From the IMG/VR virus record IMGVR_UViG_3300012942_000071, positions 1 to 43,452 of that record: 43,452 nucleotides of DNA; one strand, written 5' to 3'. Below the pieces are notes generated by a model. That model searched no databases and had not been told where the DNA came from. It saw nothing but the letters and a program-made list of their open reading frames with translations. Below are positions 14,751 through 23,389 of the stretch, in pieces (position 1 is the stretch's first letter; every line of letters begins with the position of its first letter). The DNA comes from a virus. Lineage: Duplodnaviria > Caudoviricetes. Made by a program: the position numbers and the translations under genes.

Positions 14751-15641
14751 TTACCTCGCCTCTCGCGTCTTTACCGAGTCGGCCAGCCTCTGTGTACCCC
14801 GTGACCATCCTTCACAAGTGTCACAGCAATACAGTGCATAAGTCTGGTTGAGCGTGTGGTACTCTCCGTCACGGACGAGTGCTTTGCTTCCGCAGTAAGG
14901 ACATAACGTACCGCCGCCAGCAAACATCGCAGCGTGTGGAACATGCTTAAGCCAAGGAAGCAACCGAGTATACAAGCGCTCAGTAAGTTTAACGTCCTGT
15001 AGGTTGTATTCACGCATTTCCTCCCAAGCTTCCGGATCGTTCTGCTCAAAGCATCTAACCCACAGGTCCATGCCCGAATGCTTGTTCTTTTCACCTTCGC
15101 CAACAAACTGAGCAAGGTAGTCCAGCTTCCGCGACGGAAGATCGAACTGTGCCCTGTTTGTCTTGATCAGGTCAATACTCTTGTACGGCTTAGGCGGACC
15201 CATGCGCAACTCTAGAAACTCGTTATTGAGCCTCTTGAAGTCATACCGGTCACCGTTGTAGGTGATCACGATATCGGCTTCTGAGAGCAGTTTATGTACC
15301 TCCCTAACCATGTTCTCATGGCCGTCGTGAAAGTCACTCAGAAAGCCTGTGGTGGCTTCTCCGAGCCATTTGTAGGCGACGCAAATCATGCCGCCGTTCT
15401 CTTTGATTTGGTTGATACCGATGTTCTGGTTGAACAGCCCCCAAGTGTAAACCGTAAGAGGCTTACTCTCGATATCAATTGTTAGGATACGCGGATTGGC
15501 GTTTTCATCATCCGGCAGCGTGTGATACAGCGCACGATACTTGTTGATTGTTGACTTGCCAACGCCGAGATACTTTGCGGCAGAACGGGACGGTAGCCCG
15601 GACACCCTATCTAGTTCGCTCTTAGTCAGTACCCGACTCAT
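14751..15641 (-). CDS. DnaQ/RNase H-like 3'-5' exonuclease with N-terminal HTH and C-terminal Zn ribbon
   Basis: TIDIES, YNGDRYD, YNLQDV exo motifs; RSAAKYLGVGKSTI HTH; CPYC...CDTC. Confidence 0.85.
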   Translation of the reverse strand: MSRVLTKSELDRVSGLPSRSAAKYLGVGKSTINKYRALYHTLPDDENANPRILTIDIESKPLTVYTWGLFNQNIGINQIKENGGMICVAYKWLGEATTGFLSDFHDGHENMVREVHKLLSEADIVITYNGDRYDFKRLNNEFLELRMGPPKPYKSIDLIKTNRAQFDLPSRKLDYLAQFVGEGEKNKHSGMDLWVRCFEQNDPEAWEEMREYNLQDVKLTERLYTRLLPWLKHVPHAAMFAGGGTLCPYCGSKALVRDGEYHTLNQTYALYCCDTCEGWSRGTQRLADSVKTREAR

Positions 15642-15795
15642 TAAACACCTTTTTCAGAATATTGTAAAGTTCGCGAGCTTCGTCGGAACTGTACCAATGG
15701 AGAACTTTGCCGTTAAGAAATGTATGATCTACTTGTCCATCTATGAACTCGACTGTTACTTCGTCACGGTAGTTCTTGTCAAGCAGTTTTGCCAT
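15622..15795 (-). CDS. 57 aa hypothetical protein (not in ORF track)
   Basis: AAGGAGGT RBS then MAKLLDKNYRDEVTVEF...SDEARELYNILKKVFNESGTD. Confidence 0.75.
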   Translation of the reverse strand: MAKLLDKNYRDEVTVEFIDGQVDHTFLNGKVLHWYSSDEARELYNILKKVFNESGTD

Positions 15796-15817
15796 GTTAC
15801 CTCCTTGTCAACTGTGT

Positions 15818-15862
15818 AGTCTACCATAGGCACAGAAAAACCGCCAGCATGTGCTGACGGTT
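15818..15862 (-). terminator. Terminator ending tRNA array, followed by extended -10 (TGGTAGACT)
   Basis: CCGTCAGCA-CA-TGCTGGCGG then TTTTTCT. Confidence 0.8.
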
Positions 15863-15864
15863 AT

Positions 15865-15941
15865 TGGTTGGGGAAGTGAGATTCGAACTCACTGTTTCGA
15901 TCTTATCAGAATCGCACCTATACCATATTGGAGTTTCCCCA
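15865..15941 (-). tRNA. tRNA-Ile(GAT)
   Basis: CGATT-CTGATAA-GATCG arm; T arm GTGAG-TTCGAAT-CTCAC; CCA; weak D arm. Confidence 0.8.
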
Positions 15942-15944
15942 AAG

Positions 15945-16016
15945 AGTGTTATGGCCGCTGTCCTAGCTAAAGGGAGTGCTCTTAGTTTAAAGGTAGAACC
16001 GTCCTCACCATAACAC
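15945..16016 (-). ncRNA. Unknown structured RNA A
   Basis: 9-bp closing stem GTGTTATGG/CCATAACAC, tRNA-sized, no T arm. Confidence 0.45.
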
Positions 16017-16018
16017 AG

Positions 16019-16094
16019 CCCCGGTCAAGGGATTCGAACCCCCATTTTCATCCATTACCGTTTACTGCTTAGAACACAGCGCGGTTACACCGGG
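16019..16094 (-). tRNA. Non-canonical tRNA-Arg(TCT)-like RNA with rewired D-arm
   Basis: Acceptor and T arm present; ACCG before and CGGT-AATGGA after the anticodon arm GCTGT-GTTCTAA-GCAGT. Confidence 0.7.
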
Positions 16095-16095
16095 T

Positions 16096-16169
16096 TGGAG
16101 GTAGATACCGGAGTCGAACCGGTCTATTTCGTTTTGCAGACGATAGGCTAGCCGATCACCCAATCTACC
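16096..16169 (-). tRNA. tRNA-Cys(GCA)
   Basis: GGTAGAT/ATCTACC, U73, CCA, loop CT-GCA-AA. Confidence 0.9.
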
Positions 16170-16170
16170 G

Positions 16171-16246
16171 TACCGGGTCCGGGGCTTGAACCCGGCTGAA
16201 CCTGATACCCTTTCAACATCTTATAAGGATGAGGGGATAACCCGGC
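16171..16246 (-). tRNA. Non-canonical tRNA-Ile(TAT)-like RNA with rewired D-arm
   Basis: GCCGGGT/ACCCGGT-A; CATC-CTTATAA-GATG; CCC...GGG-TATCAGG; T arm CCGGG-TTCAAGC-CCCGG. Confidence 0.75.
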
Positions 16247-16247
16247 T

Positions 16248-16321
16248 TGGTAGGCCCCCAGGGTACTGACCCCTGTTCCAGAGATTAAAAGTCAATTGCA
16301 TCACCTTAATGCTTGAGGCCC
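16248..16321 (-). tRNA. tRNA-Lys(TTT), degenerate
   Basis: Loop CT-TTT-AA, CCA; mismatched anticodon stem; T loop GTCAGTA. Confidence 0.65.
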
Positions 16322-16334
16322 ATGTTTAGTTGTT

Positions 16335-16413
16335 TGGCACGCGGGGCAGAAATCGAATCTGCAATGGCTGCTGATTCAAAGTCAGCGCTGCTACCGCCAG
16401 TGGACACCCGCGT
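16335..16413 (-). tRNA. tRNA-Gln(TTG)
   Basis: GCTGA-CTTTGAA-TCAGC; ACGCGGG/CCCGCGT-G-CCA. Confidence 0.85.
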
Positions 16414-16418
16414 AAAAG

Positions 16419-16491
16419 CTCTACCGCCCGAAGTCGAATCGAGACTAACAGGGTCAGAACCTGTCGTGCTACCTGATTACACTACGGTAGA
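16419..16491 (-). tRNA. tRNA-Gln(CTG)
   Basis: ACAGG-TTCTGAC-CCTGT; canonical D arm. Confidence 0.9.
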
Positions 16492-16493
16492 AG

Positions 16494-16566
16494 TGCGCCC
16501 GAGAGGATTCGAACCTCTAGTCTATTGGGTCGTAACCAATCGCAGTTTCCGTTGTGCTACGAGCGC
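16494..16566 (-). tRNA. tRNA-Arg(ACG)
   Basis: ATTGG-TTACGAC-CCAAT; canonical cloverleaf. Confidence 0.9.
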
Positions 16567-16569
16567 AAG

Positions 16570-16716
16570 TGTCCCCCAATTAAATTTCGATAGAGGATTT
16601 CTTGTCCCCCGAGAACGGTTTAACACGCCGCTCAACGCTCCCCAGCCATTCACAGGGCTTCTGCAACATTAAGCTGAACACATACGTCAGCGGTCAGTTG
16701 CGGTTGCACAATGTTT
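16570..16716 (-). ncRNA. Unknown structured RNA B
   Basis: Nested and tandem hairpins filling a ~155-nt gap between tRNAs. Confidence 0.45.
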
Positions 16717-16726
16717 AATTAGGTTG

Positions 16727-16797
16727 CTCCCCGCCGAGGTACCGAGCCTCGTCCAAGTCGTTAACAGCGACACATGCAGCCTTTACACCTGCGGGGA
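16727..16797 (-). tRNA. tRNA-Asn(GTT)
   Basis: GTCG-CTGTTAA-CGAC; TCCCCGC/GCGGGGA-G; T loop CTCGGTA. Confidence 0.8.
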
Positions 16798-16801
16798 ATA
16801 A

Positions 16802-16854
16802 GCGACAGTTTAACCCTAGGGTATCAGTTCAGCTTTCGCTCCGGCAACTGTCAG
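16802..16854 (-). ncRNA. Unknown structured RNA C
   Basis: GACAGTT/AACTGTC stem enclosing AGC-GAAA-GCT and ACC-CTAG-GGT hairpins. Confidence 0.45.
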
Positions 16855-16858
16855 CCGT

Positions 16859-16931
16859 TGGTCCTCTCGGTAGTATTCGAAACCACTTAGCTTCCGTGTA
16901 AGAGAAGTTAGCACAACCTATGCGCAAGAGG
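16859..16931 (-). tRNA. tRNA-Val(TAC)
   Basis: CTTCT-CTTACAC-GGAAG; CCTCTTG/CGAGAGG-A-CCA. Confidence 0.8.
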
Positions 16932-16932
16932 A

Positions 16933-17009
16933 TGGAGCCCTCGGAGTGAATCGAACACTCTGCTTACTGTTTACAAGACAGTCCCATATGCCATTTTTGG
17001 ATCGAGGGC
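16933..17009 (-). tRNA. tRNA-Thr(TGT)
   Basis: ACTGT-CTTGTAA-ACAGT; GCCCTCG/CGAGGGC; CCA. Confidence 0.85.
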
Positions 17010-17027
17010 AAGTATTAAATTGTCAAG

Positions 17028-17101
17028 AGGGATATGAGAGAATTGAACTCTCACCTGCTGTTTGGAAGACAGTTATGCAGAAACCACTACACCAATATCC
17101 C
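17028..17101 (-). tRNA. tRNA-Gly(TCC)
   Basis: Loop CT-TCC-AA; GGGATAT/ATATCCC, U73. Confidence 0.9.
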
Positions 17102-17105
17102 AAAG

Positions 17106-17176
17106 TACCCCCGCACAGAATTGAACTGTGCTTCACTGCTTAAGAGGCAGCTAGATCGCCACTATCTTTCAGGGGT
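17106..17176 (-). tRNA. tRNA-Lys(CTT)
   Basis: CTGC-CTCTTAA-GCAG; T arm CACAG-TTCAATT-CTGTG. Confidence 0.85.
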
Positions 17177-17211
17177 GTGTATTTAGTTATCAAATCGACC
17201 AAAGTAAATTT

Positions 17212-17282
17212 CAGTATCATCGGGACTCGAACCCAAACCTCCGGTTTCAAGGACCGGAGTGCTGCCATTACACCATGTTACG
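17212..17282 (-). tRNA. Atypical tRNA, Gln(TTG)-like with C33 and mismatched acceptor
   Basis: Gln-type D arm TGGTGTAATGGCAGCAC; CCGGT-CCTTGAA-ACCGG; canonical T arm. Confidence 0.6.
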
Positions 17283-17303
17283 TGATGTTTAATTTGGTAC
17301 TCG

Positions 17304-17387
17304 CGGACCAGGGAGAATTCGAATCTCATGCCTTTCGGCACCATCAAATTAGCAGTTTGAGGCCAACCCTGTTGACTTCCGTGATCC
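17304..17387 (-). tRNA. tRNA-Ser(GCT), atypical 8/4-like fold
   Basis: TCAAA-CTGCTAA-TTTGA; variable arm TGCC-GAAA-GGCA; G73. Confidence 0.8.
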
Positions 17388-17405
17388 ATGTATTAAGTTA
17401 GTAAA

Positions 17406-17560
17406 GTAGGAGCGTAGCGATTGGTGACGTTATTTCCGCTCGCTTTCCCCCACGGTGTGATCAACTCACCGTCCCGCCTACCAACTGTCCGCATAGGGGC
17501 GGGAGAACGCAACATTCACTACACAGCTTCGTGACGCGGTGTAAACAACACTTCATCTAC
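17406..17560 (-). ncRNA. Unknown structured RNA D
   Basis: TCCCGCC/GGCGGGA, ACGGTG/CACCGT and long closing helices in a ~175-nt gap. Confidence 0.5.
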
Positions 17561-17563
17561 GCG

Positions 17564-17650
17564 CGGGCTGTAAGGGATTCGAACCCCCACGTGATATCAC
17601 TACCACATCAACGTTTTCAAGACGCATAAGTACACCAAATACGACAGCCC
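17564..17650 (-). tRNA. tRNA-Ser(TGA)
   Basis: Loop CT-TGA-AA; long variable arm; GGGCTGT/ACAGCCC-G. Confidence 0.85.
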
Positions 17651-17656
17651 ATATTA

Positions 17657-17692
17657 AATTGAAAGCCCCCCGAATTTTGTTCGGAGGGCTTG
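17657..17692 (-). terminator. Terminator hairpin inside tRNA array
   Basis: AAGCCCTCCGAA-CAAAA-TTCGGGGGGCTT then TCAATTT. Confidence 0.75.
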
Positions 17693-17778
17693 TTTCAACA
17701 CAGAAAGGAGGTTTTATGCCACACCAAAGCAACGGACTGTAATGCTGCCCGTATTCTGTCGCTTCGATGTTTGCATGA
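17657..17778 (-). ncRNA. Candidate ~120-nt sRNA with anti-Shine-Dalgarno motif (contains leaderless 20-codon ORF 17714-17776)
   Basis: Bounded by promoter and terminator; contains ACCTCCTTTCT. Confidence 0.55.
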
Positions 17779-17782
17779 GTAT

Positions 17783-17812
17783 ATCTTACCACACTTTCTT
17801 TCCTTGTGTCAA
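17783..17812 (-). promoter_or_regulatory. SigA-type promoter TTGACA-N18-TAAGAT with TG extension
   Basis: Near-consensus; same TGTGGTAAGAT as at 19284-19294. Confidence 0.8.
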
Positions 17813-17814
17813 CG

Positions 17815-17896
17815 TAGCCCAACCGAGATTCGAACTCGGAGCAAATAAATGCACAGGGTCTAAGCCTGCTGCGTGAACCAGTTTCGCCATTGGGCC
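17815..17896 (-). tRNA. tRNA-Leu(TAG)
   Basis: GCAGG-CTTAGAC-CCTGT; long variable arm. Confidence 0.9.
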
Positions 17897-17897
17897 G

Positions 17898-17971
17898 TAG
17901 CTAGTGTGGGATTCGAACCCACAGCATTAGATGTTTTGAATATCTATGGTCTACCAGTTGCCTAACCAGCC
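17898..17971 (-). tRNA. tRNA-Leu(CAA), short variable region
   Basis: Loop TT-CAA-AA; D arm GGCAACTGGTAGACC; A73. Confidence 0.8.
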
Positions 17972-17972
17972 G

Positions 17973-18044
17973 TGTCCACTAGAAGAATCGAACTTCTGCG
18001 CACCGGGCTTCAACCGGTTGCTCTACCAACTGAGCTAAGAGGAC
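17973..18044 (-). tRNA. tRNA-Phe(GAA)
   Basis: ACCGG-TTGAAGC-CCGGT; TAGCTCAGTTGGTAGAGC. Confidence 0.9.
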
Positions 18045-18049
18045 GTACG

Positions 18050-18121
18050 TGGGGCAGGTAGGAGTCGAACCTACTCACGATAGATTTACAGTCTAAGTCC
18101 TGAGAACCGCCAGACTACCCC
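18050..18121 (-). tRNA. tRNA-Tyr(GTA), short variable region
   Basis: TAGA-CTGTAAA-TCTA; GGGGTAG/CTGCCCC-A. Confidence 0.8.
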
Positions 18122-18122
18122 G

Positions 18123-18193
18123 TATCGCCACGGAGAATTGAACTCCGAATAGCAGGTTGAGAACCTGCCGTTTTACCATTAAACTATGGCGAC
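18123..18193 (-). tRNA. tRNA-Glu(CTC)
   Basis: GCAGG-TTCTCAA-CCTGC; canonical. Confidence 0.9.
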
Positions 18194-18194
18194 G

Positions 18195-18267
18195 TACTCC
18201 GTGCCGGATTCGAACCGGCGATATCCAGGGTGAAAACCTGGGAGATTAACCACTATCCTAACGGAGC
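18195..18267 (-). tRNA. tRNA-Glu(TTC)
   Basis: CCAGG-TTTTCAC-CCTGG; canonical. Confidence 0.9.
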
Positions 18268-18268
18268 T

Positions 18269-18343
18269 TGGCGATCTAGACGGGTAACGATCCCGCTTCC
18301 CCCGCGCTGACAACGCGGTGCTTGTCCTTTCAGCTTCTAGACC
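18269..18343 (-). tRNA. tRNA-Asp(GTC)
   Basis: CCGCG-TTGTCAG-CGCGG; G73, CCA; T loop ATCGTTA. Confidence 0.85.
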
Positions 18344-18355
18344 AAACTATTTAAT

Positions 18356-18431
18356 TGGGGTGACTGGTGGGATTTGAACCCACATCTTCCTGGCTCACAA
18401 CCAAGCTATCTAACCATTGAACTACAGCCAC
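18356..18431 (-). tRNA. tRNA-His(GTG)
   Basis: CTTGG-TTGTGAG-CCAGG; C73, CCA. Confidence 0.9.
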
Positions 18432-18433
18432 AG

Positions 18434-18508
18434 TCCGGATGGGAGGATTCGAACCTCCGACCTTAAGCTTCCAAAGCAAACGACCTAACCAAACTAGCCC
18501 ACACCCGG
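18434..18508 (-). tRNA. tRNA-Pro(TGG)
   Basis: Loop TT-TGG-AA; CCGGGTG/CATCCGG-A; weak anticodon stem. Confidence 0.8.
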
Positions 18509-18515
18509 TTGATTC

Positions 18516-18594
18516 TGGCTTTCGCCCCCTGTATAAACACGTTTCGACACTCGTGTTAGATGCTCTTGGTCAGCCAAGACTATTAAGGGAGCCA
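18516..18594 (-). ncRNA. Unknown structured RNA E (three-way junction)
   Basis: TGGCT/AGCCA and CCCT/AGGG enclosing TCTTGG-CTGA-CCAAGA and AACACG-N10-CGTGTT. Confidence 0.5.
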
Positions 18595-18619
18595 CCCGCC
18601 ATAATATTCAATTTTCAAG

Positions 18620-18693
18620 TTGCAGAGGCGGGAATCGAACCCACGTAGTCGGCTTATGAGGCCGCGCCGGAACCGCCTCCGGTCTACTCTGCA
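18620..18693 (-). tRNA. tRNA-Met(CAT)
   Basis: CGGC-CTCATAA-GCCG; TGCAGAG/CTCTGCA-A; Met vs Ile2 identity not resolvable by eye. Confidence 0.85.
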
Positions 18694-18698
18694 ATACG

Positions 18699-18771
18699 TG
18701 GACCTGACGTGGATCGAACACGCTACCTCCTGTGTGCAAGACAGGCGTCATACCATTATGACTTCAAGCCC
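18699..18771 (-). tRNA. tRNA-Ala(TGC)
   Basis: CCTGT-CTTGCAC-ACAGG; G3:U70; 5' end overlaps HNH stop. Confidence 0.9.
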
Positions 18772-19109
18772 AAACTGCGTTTCTGTTTCCAGTTACGCAT
18801 GTATTCATTTTTTCTAGTCTTGCAAGGATCACACTTGCAATTTCTTTTACCGCTTAACCCGCCGCCATGTTCTACACCATTATCGAGTTTAGATTTTTCG
18901 ATGTGGCAACGATGACAAAGTAACTGCAACTTTGAAATTTCATCTGTAATGTCTGCGTTGGTAATCTTTTTGCTTACATTAAAGTCTTTAGTTGCTGGAT
19001 CAATGTGATCAAATTCAAGGTTATTCACGGAGCCGCATTGATTACAAGCGCCACCTAGCTGTGTAATTACTTCTGCTCTTCGAGTATGATAACGCGCGTT
19101 ATAATCCAT
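18756..19109 (-). CDS. HNH endonuclease
   Basis: CNQC...LEFDHIDP...LQLLCHRCH; AGGAGG RBS before ATG 19109. Confidence 0.9.
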   Translation of the reverse strand: MDYNARYHTRRAEVITQLGGACNQCGSVNNLEFDHIDPATKDFNVSKKITNADITDEISKLQLLCHRCHIEKSKLDNGVEHGGGLSGKRNCKCDPCKTRKNEYMRNWKQKRSLGLKS

Positions 19110-19120
19110 CCAACCTCCTA

Positions 19121-19148
19121 GCACTCTACCAATTGGAGCTAATGACCC
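19121..19148 (-). pseudogene. Orphan 5' tRNA fragment (Ala-like)
   Basis: GGGTCAT-TA-GCTC-CAATTGGTA-GAGT running straight into HNH RBS. Confidence 0.7.
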
Positions 19149-20273: not shown

Positions 20274-21030
20274 TTATGAAAGATCAGCCCAACTACGGCC
20301 TACGCTGTAGTCTGCTAGGAACGGTACCTTATTACCGAAGATCATTTGTCCGGTAGCACGGAACTCGGATGCAACGTACTGACCTATCAGGTCTGCATCC
20401 TCTTCCGGGCCTTCAATCATTAGTGCGTCGTGCACAATGTTGAAGATGTGGTAGCCGTTATCTTTCAGTGCTTCATTTATTCTGATACCTGTTGTTAGGC
20501 AGATATCACTAGCCGTACTCTGAGGCAGGAATGATAGTGCTTCTCGCTGAACGTTAAACACGTTCTTAGATGTGATTACTTCCGACTGGAACTTACGTCC
20601 GAACGGGTTGATCAGCAAACTACGCTTCTCGGGCGCGGTGGCTGCCTCCATAACGTCAAGACGCCACTGCTGGAACTTAGCTGCCGTGTTCAGGTAGTTA
20701 TCGATGATAGCAGAAGCCTCTTTAGTTGGCAACTTAAGTGACCGTGCTATGGCTGGCGCTTGACGCCCGAATGCAAGACCATACTGGACAGCCTTGCACT
20801 TAGTACGATCCTCCTTGTGCCCCACCGGGTCTGCCGCCTTGTACTCTTCAATGGTGCCGAATTGCTCTATCTTTGAGGGAAAGCATACGGGCATCATGTA
20901 GGTGTCAAAGAAATCACCTGCACCTTCCTGTAGAGCCTCGATCATCCAAGGATCATCTGACAGCAGCGCCATGACTCGATAATCGAAGCTCTGCCTGAGA
21001 TAAGTCTGCGTTAATCAGGGTTAGAGCCAT
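20274..21030 (-). CDS. DNA polymerase family A, C-terminal subunit (motifs A, B, C); frame interrupted by 7 nt at 20976-20982
   Basis: NADLSQAELR (frame of 21030) joins VMALL...RTKCKAVQYGLAFG...PQSTASD...IVHDAL (frame of 20972); GGAAGGTGA RBS before 21030. Confidence 0.9.
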
Positions 21031-21719: not shown

Positions 21720-22014
21720 TGTCCCGTTTCTGTCTAATTCGGTATGCTGCACGAATAAGGTTATCGTATGCTTGTTCTATTGTTAAGTATGGTGTCATCA
21801 GCAACGCGTTTACTGTACTTTTGAATTCATCTATTTCTTTTTCATCAAGCCCAAGCGTCATAGCAGCTAGAGCAGCGATTACAGCAAACTCTCCACCATA
21901 TGGTGCAGACGCCGGAACTTGCTGTCCGGCGTAGTAGTCAATATCATTCGCCGTAACAATGTACCCGCCACTGCTATAGAATGGAACCTCTGGAACCTCT
22001 GGAACCTTAGCCAT
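21706..22014 (-). CDS. Hypothetical protein between polymerase halves
   Basis: Overlaps stop of N-terminal polymerase gene. Confidence 0.65.
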   Translation of the reverse strand: MAKVPEVPEVPFYSSGGYIVTANDIDYYAGQQVPASAPYGGEFAVIAALAAMTLGLDEKEIDEFKSTVNALLMTPYLTIEQAYDNLIRAAYRIRQKRDNGKV

Positions 22015-23389
22015 GAGTACTCACAATCCCCCTTACCCGCTTATCACGCGGTAGATTCTGCACGTTCGGCTGAGTGGAGCTAAGTCTACCCGTGCTCGTG
22101 CCGTGCACTAGGAATGTAGGATGAATTCTACCATTGCGGGCTTGCTTACGCCAGCCGTTAGCATACGTACTACTGATCTTACTCTCCTTACGGTACGCTA
22201 ACAACGCCTCGCAGAAGCTGCGTACTACACCTGAGCTAACTTCCTTAAGCTGTGTAATAGTTTCCTCGTCAGTTGACTTCACCATGACTTGCTGCGACAA
22301 CAGCCACTTTTTAATCTGCTGCGGACTATTCGGATTAAACGATAGGTCGCCGGTTATTACTCGCATAGACGCATTAAGAAGGGCCATTTGATTCGCACAA
22401 GCGTTGGTAAGCTGTACGGCATAGTTGTCGTCAAATGGAATACCGTAGTTCTCCACATCAAGCAAAAAGCTTGCTGCCGACATTTCCAAGGCGAACGCTT
22501 TCTCATTATCGGCATCGTTTGCAATCTGCGGGGCTAGAAACTTATAAAGCTCCAACGTCCAGAACACGTCCCAGCCGTTGTACGCTACCAACTTATCGTA
22601 GGGTATAAGTTCATAATGTCCGCCGCCCTTAAGATACTTTCGCAATCCGGCTTCCCATTCCGGGGCACCAAGATAACGCTGCGCAAGAGCCTTAAGACCG
22701 TGCATACCTGCTGCAATGTTCAGCACATGGTGTGCCAACATTGTATCAAACCACACATCAAGCTTTACACCAAGAACTCGGTTAAGTACTCTCGTGTCGA
22801 ACTTGCCGTTGTGATATACAGCCTTGGTAAAGTTAGGCAAAAATACGCGTAGACCATCAAGCTGCCAATTGTTCAATGGCCTGGATTGATTATTTTCGGG
22901 GTCAGGATTAACGATAACCCTGGGATAGGCCATACCCTCTTGCCACACCGCCACGGAGATAATGTTTACCTCGTCAGGCGTATGCTCCGAACCTAGATTA
23001 CCATCAGTTTCAATGTCGATAGCAATGGGCTCATCTAGGGCCAATCGTCCCAGCAATACATCGGCGTCCACAGTTGCCACAGGTCGCTGAAACGGGGGCT
23101 CGATAAACCCCCCGATCACCCGCTCAATAGCCGCCGACAACACAGTTGCCGCGTTAGGCTTAGTCATAAGTTGCGCAATAGAATACGTTTCTACATGCTC
23201 CCAGCCGTCCTTGATCATGTCTGGCGACTTACCGAAACACAGTAGTTTCTTCTGTGTAGCGGCGTTAAGGTCTGTAGTAAACGAAATGGATGAGCCCTTA
23301 AAGGACTCATCCACAATAGTTCTAATGACTTCTGCTGCTCGCGGCGTCAAAGCGTCCGCTGAATGTATAGCAATGATGTAATCACTCAT
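22007..23389 (-). CDS. DNA polymerase family A, N-terminal subunit (3'-5' exonuclease, thumb, start of palm)
   Basis: AIDIETDG, YHNGKFD, FDTMLAH, YNGWD, TSTGRLSSTQPNVQNLPR then stop. Confidence 0.9.
   Translation of the reverse strand: MSDYIIAIHSADALTPRAAEVIRTIVDESFKGSSISFTTDLNAATQKKLLCFGKSPDMIKDGWEHVETYSIAQLMTKPNAATVLSAAIERVIGGFIEPPFQRPVATVDADVLLGRLALDEPIAIDIETDGNLGSEHTPDEVNIISVAVWQEGMAYPRVIVNPDPENNQSRPLNNWQLDGLRVFLPNFTKAVYHNGKFDTRVLNRVLGVKLDVWFDTMLAHHVLNIAAGMHGLKALAQRYLGAPEWEAGLRKYLKGGGHYELIPYDKLVAYNGWDVFWTLELYKFLAPQIANDADNEKAFALEMSAASFLLDVENYGIPFDDNYAVQLTNACANQMALLNASMRVITGDLSFNPNSPQQIKKWLLSQQVMVKSTDEETITQLKEVSSGVVRSFCEALLAYRKESKISSTYANGWRKQARNGRIHPTFLVHGTSTGRLSSTQPNVQNLPRDKRVRGIVSTHG

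Follow-up and report, generated by a model that had tools for sequence, protein, structure and literature searches.

The window analysed here is a viral stretch of 43,452 nucleotides (nt), IMG/VR record IMGVR_UViG_3300012942_000071 (Caudoviricetes), and it contains two 76-nt genes, called gene 1 and gene 2 below, that resemble transfer RNA (tRNA) genes in nearly every feature except the order of their central segments. They belong to a conserved phage family whose members are likely, on our prediction, to be working elongator tRNAs, here tRNA-Arg(UCU) and tRNA-Ile(UAU), with an internally permuted D/anticodon module. As read from the sequences, each gene runs from the acceptor strand through U8 A9, a strand X, N26, the anticodon arm, a linker, a strand Y, the segment A14 R15..G18G19 N20..A Y48 and the T arm to the second acceptor strand, with X pairing with Y. 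Formally, the 10-43 block can be described as circularly permuted, opened between 21 and 22. A first-pass annotation of this DNA had proposed such a swap in the order of the D-stem strands (acceptor, D 3′ strand, anticodon arm, D 5′ strand, D-loop, T arm), and all sequence-level tests run here agree with it.

Architecture of gene 1 and gene 2

Both genes lie on the minus strand, with the sequences and the length that the first-pass annotation had given. Gene 1, from 16094 to 16019, reads CCCGGUG UA ACCG C GCUGU GUUCUAA GCAGU AAA CGGU AAUGGAUGAAAAU GGGGG UUCGAAU CCCUU GACCGGG G. Its features are:

16019..16094, minus: rewired tRNA gene 1, Arg type, predicted anticodon UCU (reading AGA), 76 nt, no encoded CCA
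16088..16094, minus: acceptor 5′ strand CCCGGUG, pairing with 16020-16026 (GACCGGG) in 6 of 7 pairs
16082..16085, minus: 5′ strand of the long-range helix, ACCG, in place of D-stem 22-25 (minimum free energy fold and family covariation)
16064..16080, minus: anticodon arm GCUGU GUUCUAA GCAGU, with the anticodon UCU at 16071-16073
16061-16063, minus: linker AAA, before the 3′ strand of the helix
16057..16060, minus: 3′ strand of the long-range helix, CGGU, in place of D-stem 10-13
16044..16056, minus: D-loop-like segment AAUGGAUGAAAAU, read as A14 A15 .. G18 G19 A20 .. A U48
16027..16043, minus: T arm GGGGG UUCGAAU CCCUU

Gene 2, from 16246 to 16171, reads GCCGGGU UA UCCC C UCAUC CUUAUAA GAUGU UGAAA GGGU AUCAGGUUCAG CCGGG UUCAAGC CCCGG ACCCGGU A, and is divided in the same way:

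16171..16246, minus: rewired tRNA gene 2, Ile type, predicted anticodon UAU (reading AUA), 76 nt, discriminator A, no encoded CCA
16234..16237, minus: 5′ strand of the long-range helix, UCCC, of which CCC pairs with GGG and the outer U stands opposite U
16216..16232, minus: anticodon arm UCAUC CUUAUAA GAUGU, with the anticodon UAU at 16223-16225
16211-16215, minus: linker UGAAA, before the 3′ strand of the helix
16207..16210, minus: 3′ strand of the long-range helix, GGGU
16196..16206, minus: D-loop-like segment AUCAGGUUCAG, read as A14 U15 .. G18 G19 U20 .. A G48
16179..16195, minus: T arm CCGGG UUCAAGC CCCGG

Neither gene has a D hairpin before the anticodon arm, because only five bases lie between A9 and the anticodon stem. 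Instead, a strand before the anticodon arm pairs with one after it, ACCG with CGGU in gene 1 and CCC with GGG in gene 2, a long-range pairing that had been noticed from these two genes and that is now backed by covariation throughout the family. The helix is followed by AAUGG in gene 1 and by (U)AUCAGG in gene 2. The acceptor stem is complete in gene 2 (7 of 7 pairs) and carries a G.G at 7-66 in gene 1, which recurs in a relative (L163); the anticodon stem has five pairs in gene 1 and four in gene 2, topped by a U.U. Gene 1 shows U8, A14, A15/U48, the GG as part of GGA, and a discriminator G, and gene 2 shows U8, A14, the GG as part of GGU, and a discriminator A.

The minimum free energy (MFE) structure that RNAfold gives for gene 1 includes exactly the ACCG/CGGU helix, and the family fold of this gene is essentially its MFE structure. 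We also considered whether the anticodon hairpin might be the D arm, followed by a further anticodon arm; this was ruled out, as no complementary stem follows the hairpin.

Comparative evidence for the structure

Standard annotation passes over both genes, as had been anticipated. Neither is among the 21 calls that ARAGORN makes in the window by default, and both stay uncalled in its relaxed (-ps, -ps95, -ps90) and mitochondrial modes, of which -ps90 yields a spurious 'tRNA-Leu(caa)' across parts of two genes. The Rfam model RF00005 has no match over gene 1 or gene 2, either at the gathering threshold (29 bits) or at E<=10. In GenBank, some members of the family go under the names tRNA-Leu or tRNA-Phe; a miscall of gene 1 as an amber/Pyl tRNA, which had also been predicted, was reproduced by none of the tools run.

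Rejection by standard finders, together with the G.G in the gene 1 acceptor and the U.U in the gene 2 anticodon stem, is what one might see in decayed tRNA pseudogenes or in chance look-alikes between real tRNA genes. We consider this extremely improbable. A covariance model (R1), built from 27 equal-length members that all come from contigs other than the window, gives gene 2 a score of 75.4 bits (E 9e-19) and gene 1 one of 45.4 bits (E 2e-10). Every helix shows compensatory changes among hundreds of homologs, the family is conserved among phages that infect Streptomyces, Rhodococcus, Bacteroides and Pseudomonas, and the apparent defects recur in relatives. The canonical tRNAs of the window score at most 22.4 bits against R1, the best of them being the next match in the window. 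Measured on this scale, gene 1 and gene 2 are far beyond chance.

Homologs were collected from IMG/VR by scanning for the anticodon loop and the T loop at their unusual spacing, with no other position fixed; ~370 matches are estimated. Among the 237 matches listed, 96 have at least six of the seven acceptor pairs at exactly the predicted distance; these are 87 unique sequences, and the full architecture is present in 85 of them and absent from two (L052, L151). A third IMG/VR scan, in which the anticodon was left free, has an estimated ~1400 matches, of which 119 loci from 6 of the 64 parts of IMG/VR were examined. By the thresholds used, 61 of the 119 loci listed fit the rewired architecture; the other 58 are mostly canonical tRNAs, including 25 canonical tRNA-Ile(UAU), with at least five members that have weaker stems. 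Searches with R1, of the kind that the first-pass annotation had suggested, recover both genes in the window and relatives in several other phages.

In an alignment of 99 members (A2), 91.7% of the pairs in the named structure are standard, against 59.0% in shuffles, and the covariation score is 0.816 against 0.185 in shuffles, none of 500 of which reaches it; sliding the partners by 1-3 columns lowers the score to 0.174 or less. Pairing amounts to 98.3% in the acceptor stem, 95.5% in the long-range helix and 99.4% in the T stem, and family-wide all seven acceptor pairs show compensatory changes. The long-range helix, which RNAalifold predicts independently, has four pair types at each of three positions: CG 69, UA 13, AU 10 and GC 7 at one, CG 38, GC 38, UA 15 and AU 7 at another, and CG 49, GC 29, AU 1 and UA 1 at the inner pair. 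A lack of covariation in this helix among homologs had been named beforehand as refuting the proposal; the helix covaries. The MFE fold of gene 2 was examined separately as a native fold and rejected because its extra pairs are without covariation support.

The changes can also be followed in a single homolog. Rhodococcus phage Peregrin carries, in an unannotated gap, a 65-base blastn match to gene 2 with 87.7% identity, which is almost identical to gene 2 in its centre and has five acceptor pairs and one T-stem pair changed on both sides. ARAGORN does not call this copy, and RF00005, which finds 14 tRNAs in the whole Peregrin genome, does not find it among them.

Outside the helices, the family keeps a length of 73-79 nt, a linker of 3-8 nt (often NGAAA), a complete 7-nt anticodon loop, U33 and A37 included, and a T loop of the form UUCRANY. 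U8 A9 occur in 85 of 85 members found with patterns that left those positions unspecified. In the 85 full-architecture members, U A R N(N) G G comes after the 3′ strand of the helix, and all parsed members have a GG after A14 (the covariance-model alignment misplaces the GG in short-loop members). Positions 15 and 48 are A-U in 73, G-C in 21, U-G in one and other combinations in four of the 99; in a wider parse of 156 rows, one of them a canonical tRNA passed by the loose filter, they are A-U in 119 and G-C in 29. Position 15 and the base that immediately precedes the T stem thus vary together, as the Levitt pair does in ordinary tRNAs. All 99 members have an A as the base preceding position 48, which would fit an A21 in the layer next to 15-48. 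Comparison therefore supports the view that the segment after the long-range helix behaves as a D-loop.

Decoding potential and competing readings

The 43.5-kb contig combines a tape-measure and tail module with a replication module (family A DNA polymerase, primase, helicases), and 20 of the 21 tRNA genes called by ARAGORN lie in an array that has the orientation of the replication genes:

15865-18771, minus: tRNA array, with 20 ARAGORN tRNAs and further matches found by Rfam only

Within it, a tRNA-Cys gene (16096-16169) sits between gene 1 and gene 2 with a 1-nt spacer on each side, boundaries of the kind expected for units that would be excised from a tRNA transcript. A look through sequencing runs for 15600-16700 listed no RNA run that contains this DNA, and one DNA run, possibly the source, that covers it in full. 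The array holds a canonical tRNA-Arg(ACG) and a canonical tRNA-Ile(GAU), and no canonical tRNA with a TCT or TAT anticodon is found among the window tRNAs called by ARAGORN or Rfam. Going by their anticodons, gene 1 and gene 2 add exactly the AGA and AUA readers that the array is missing. A crude set of open reading frames (ORFs) from the window (11,498 codons) contains 88 AGA, 87 AGG and 70 AUA codons.

The anticodons of the family are narrow in range: the 61 fitting members of the anticodon-free scan have TAT (41), TCT (7), GAT (4), CCT (3), TCG (3), CAT (2) and ACG (1), and none beyond Arg, Ile or CAU occurs among them. In the 156 parsed rows, 63 of 64 Arg types have A as the base after G18G19 (position 20), while U stands there in 84 of 87 Ile types and in all four CAU types. 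All 87 Ile types have A as discriminator; the 64 Arg types have a purine there in 57 cases (G 31, A 26) and otherwise U (6) or C (1). Table 1 of PMC9976931 gives the bacterial Arg identity elements as A20, C35, U/G36 and A/G73, and those for Ile as A73, U20, A35, U36, A37 and A38, among others. Position 20 tracks the anticodon as the sets for arginyl-tRNA synthetase (ArgRS) and isoleucyl-tRNA synthetase (IleRS) list it, and the relocated loop therefore carries the D-loop determinant that fits the anticodon.

This match bears on the suggestion that the family consists of non-decoding tRNA mimics, acting as decoys for host tRNA-cutting defence nucleases, as regulators, or as traps that soak up a synthetase or a modification enzyme. 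Phage tRNAs do counter tRNA-targeting defences, as outlined in part of a 2024 preprint (10.1101/2024.01.02.573894), and an altered body could serve to evade or absorb such enzymes. A decoy, however, would have no need of anticodons restricted to Arg and Ile with matching synthetase determinants at 20 and 73, nor of a complete anticodon loop (7 nt, U33, A37), and the genes fill exactly the isoacceptor slots that the array lacks. Escape from nucleases is compatible with translating tRNAs, as the reason for their rewiring. We regard mimicry without decoding as quite unlikely.

As decoding tRNAs with a permuted module, gene 1 and gene 2 would be built and used as follows. Strand X would stand for D-stem 22-25 and strand Y for 10-13, and the resulting helix of 3-4 base pairs (bp) would stack on the anticodon stem at the usual site of the D stem, with the linker replacing the variable-loop bases that normally line it. 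The U8-A14, R15-Y48 and G18G19/T-loop contacts would then rebuild the core and the elbow, so that the L shape, judging from the conservation of these positions, would be retained. Release of the RNAs from the array transcript would require RNase P and 3′ processing, and the CCA, which is not encoded, would come from the host enzyme. The next step would be charging by host ArgRS (A20, C35, U36, G73) and IleRS (A73, U20, A35 U36 A37 A38), after which the RNAs would decode AGA and AUA, complementing the tRNA-Arg(ACG) and tRNA-Ile(GAU) of the array. Bacteria normally read AUA with a TilS-modified CAU tRNA (portions of PMC12514573 and PMC9976931), and a UAU tRNA would therefore bypass the TilS step. 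The rewiring itself perhaps hides these RNAs from host enzymes that are tuned to an ordinary tRNA body.

Several observations pull the other way. The long-range helix is short, at 2-4 pairs. Of the 99 members, 13 do not form its inner pair and 6 have a gap there, 88 are unpaired at its outermost position (in the parse usually U.U, and A-U in the subgroup of gene 1), and 57 have a mismatch at the first anticodon-stem pair. The parses took the best-pairing register, and A2 was aligned to the structure of R1, which favours that structure. For gene 2, the family fold lies at -23.2 kcal/mol, 3.6 above the MFE of -26.8 kcal/mol, and the expected R15-Y48 is replaced by U15.G48, the U-G combination seen in one of 99, and by G15.G48 in the Peregrin homolog. 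As for decoding, a UAU anticodon with an unmodified U34 would risk reading AUG. The Arg and Ile types may be two clades, and common descent, rather than repeated selection, could then explain some of the coupling of position 20 to the anticodon; however, Arg members such as L197, L148 and L183 have the linker, helix and loop layout of Ile members, unlike other Arg subgroups. Finally, a tRNA(CAU) at 18619-18693 (minus) with a 6-bp D stem is either an elongator Met or a lysidine-type Ile2 tRNA, and if it is Ile2 the phage would have two AUA readers.

The short helix also leaves room for another way to draw the molecule, with an acceptor stem, a long bulged anticodon arm, a large loop and a T arm. 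Here, the family would be akin to the D-armless tRNAs of mitochondria, in which case the helix would only extend the anticodon arm, the 11-13 nt segment would be a floppy variable loop, and the RNA would be a flexible 'boomerang' that could still translate. The 2-4 bp of the helix and the 88 of 99 unpaired outer positions suit such a drawing, and D-armless tRNAs do work in mitochondria, according to sections of PMC7609411. The mitochondrial forms, however, lose the contacts between D-loop and T-loop, while the rewired family retains U8, A9, A14, G18G19 and UUCRA at the normal length of 73-79 nt, and a floppy loop would need neither Levitt-like covariation of 15 with 48, nor an invariant A before Y48, nor a position 20 linked to identity. 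We therefore consider a D-armless organisation unlikely. Returning to the permuted module, we lean towards the wider interpretation that these genes represent a large class of natural phage tRNA-Arg and tRNA-Ile elongators without a cloverleaf, in which the L-shaped core and the identity marks are rebuilt, which are charged by the host and used by the ribosome, and whose wiring may evade enzymes that cut or gate tRNAs and may allow AUA to be read without TilS.

Distribution, known tRNA variants and significance

The family is found in cultured phages as well as in metagenomic sequences. In GenBank, 80 records match the Ile-type query, 77 of them Streptomyces phages; among the 60 matches listed of these 80 records, 58 have no annotation under the match and two are called 'tRNA-Leu'. 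One gene so labelled, gene 108 of Streptomyces phage EGole (L361 1495-1571; 'tRNA-Leu, codon UUA'), is an Ile type with GAU in the loop CUGAUAA, and gene 169 of Mildred21 (L362 1495-1570), labelled 'tRNA-Phe(gaa)', is an Arg type with UCG in the loop CUUCGAA; the annotated anticodons are wrong because the loop register was shifted. Unannotated R1 matches occur in a crAss-like Kehishuvirus of Bacteroides (84.4 bits), Streptomyces phage TunaTartare (72.4 bits) and Pseudomonas phage Bitten (49.0 bits). Other viral contigs carry two rewired genes side by side, as in L026 (141-217 and 262-338; UAU and GAU) and L235 (59-134 and 141-216; UCU and CCU).

A stricter pattern, run over 185,579 species genomes, gave 19 matches, all of them in metagenome-assembled genomes (MAGs) or 'uncultured' records, and 19 of 19 fit the family. 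The same pattern matches 19 of the 119 loci from 6 of the 64 IMG/VR parts, and the rewired family is therefore essentially phage-borne. The 19 MAG loci lie mostly inside dense tRNA arrays; ARAGORN calls none of the 19, and a canonical tRNA of the same anticodon is present within 1.5 kb at only one (L374). Going by these sequence matches, the family is widespread in phages and mostly unannotated or misnamed.

Mobile-type endonuclease genes occur near some of these tRNAs. Such a gene ends 1 nt before the rewired tRNA in the Streptomyces phages Mildred21 (HNH; L362 1059-1493) and TunaTartare (endonuclease VII; L384 485-994), and in Pseudomonas phage Bitten an HNH gene (L383 400-807) lies ~170 nt upstream of one. 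In the window, an HNH endonuclease ORF (18756-19124, minus) is located at the upstream end of the array, where it overlaps a tRNA-Ala by 16 nt.

The array has further unusual members. Directly adjoining gene 2 is a tRNA-like gene (16251-16321, minus) with the loop CUUUUAA (UUU, Lys), a D stem of 6 bp with a 3-nt loop, a T loop without UUC, and an encoded CCA after the gene; it scores 26.4 bits with Rfam (below the 29-bit cut-off) and is missed by ARAGORN. Its homolog in Xanthomonas phage X1 (L002 ~2501-2570), also unannotated, differs from it by compensatory changes in the acceptor stem and has the better anticodon stem of the two. A 72-nt tRNA with the anticodon GUA (Tyr) at 18050-18121 (minus) is found by Rfam only (33.5 bits) and not by ARAGORN. 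Bacterial tRNA-Tyr usually has a long variable arm, for which this gene is too short. Between tRNA-Ile(GAU) and gene 1, a 77-nt spacer (15942-16018, minus) has a fold closed by a 10-bp stem, GUGUUAUGGU/GCCAUAACAC, with no T loop and no Rfam match. Beyond the array, the family A DNA polymerase is split over two ORFs on the minus strand, 20274-20972 with the exonuclease and the N-terminal polymerase part and 22007-23389 with the C-terminal polymerase part, separated by ~1 kb of small ORFs without known function. Ten viral contigs whose genes include a relative (32-39% identity) of the array-adjacent polymerase-exonuclease gene contain neither an ARAGORN tRNA nor an R1 match.

Compared with canonical class I tRNA-Arg and tRNA-Ile (RF00005), the rewired family shares the 7-bp acceptor with its discriminator, the 5-bp T stem with a UUCRANY loop, the 7-nt anticodon loop with U33 and A37, U8, A14, R15-Y48, G18G19, A20 (Arg) or U20 and A73 (Ile), the length of 73-79 nt and the setting in tRNA arrays. 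It differs in having no D hairpin, in D-stem-like strands that flank the anticodon arm, in a D-loop-like segment that runs into the T stem, and in a linker of 3-8 nt on the other strand that replaces the variable loop. Permuted tRNA genes as such have a precedent in Cyanidioschyzon merolae, where the 3′ half of circularly permuted genes lies upstream of the 5′ half and processing through a circular intermediate restores an ordinary cloverleaf. These share with the rewired family an order of segments that departs from the textbook. In the rewired genes, however, the acceptor strands stand at the gene ends in normal order, the permutation is internal, and the mature RNA itself would be newly connected.

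The D-armless mitochondrial tRNAs, such as mammalian mt-tRNA-Ser(AGY) and nematode mt-tRNA-Ser(UCU), likewise have no D hairpin and keep the acceptor, anticodon and T arms (PMC7609411, PMC4013460). They are shortened and have lost the elbow contacts (PMC7609411, in part), while the rewired family is of full length with GG, UUC, U8/A14 and 15-48, adds a covarying helix across the anticodon arm, and is phage-borne rather than organellar. Allo-tRNAs and other 8/4 or 9/3 tRNAs, as portrayed in passages of PMC5389517, are also non-standard, come from metagenomes and phages, and are missed or misread by tools; they have altered acceptor and T-stem lengths with the cloverleaf order kept, whereas the rewired family is 7/5 with a rewired D region. 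The abstract of a 2024 paper describes all known bacterial tRNAs as cloverleaf (PMC11551756), and in a 2020 review of non-canonical tRNAs the word 'phage' never occurs, while in its excerpted text the D-arm- or D-stem-less tRNAs are all mitochondrial (PMC7609411). A full-text literature search, with most subscription journals and supplements outside its reach, found no description of this architecture, and the family is apparently an undescribed structural variant of tRNA.

For phage genomics, the inventories of tRNA genes are incomplete or wrong, and analyses of codon usage and host prediction in tRNA-rich phages miss predicted decoders of AGA, AGG, CGN and AUA because almost every member in cultured phages lacks annotation, with some labelled Leu or Phe. 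The family is also a natural test of how far RNase P, the CCA enzyme, synthetases, EF-Tu and the ribosome depend on particular connections of the tRNA core, and a source of structurally orthogonal scaffolds. If its members are charged and used, the cloverleaf would not be obligatory for tRNAs in bacterial translation.

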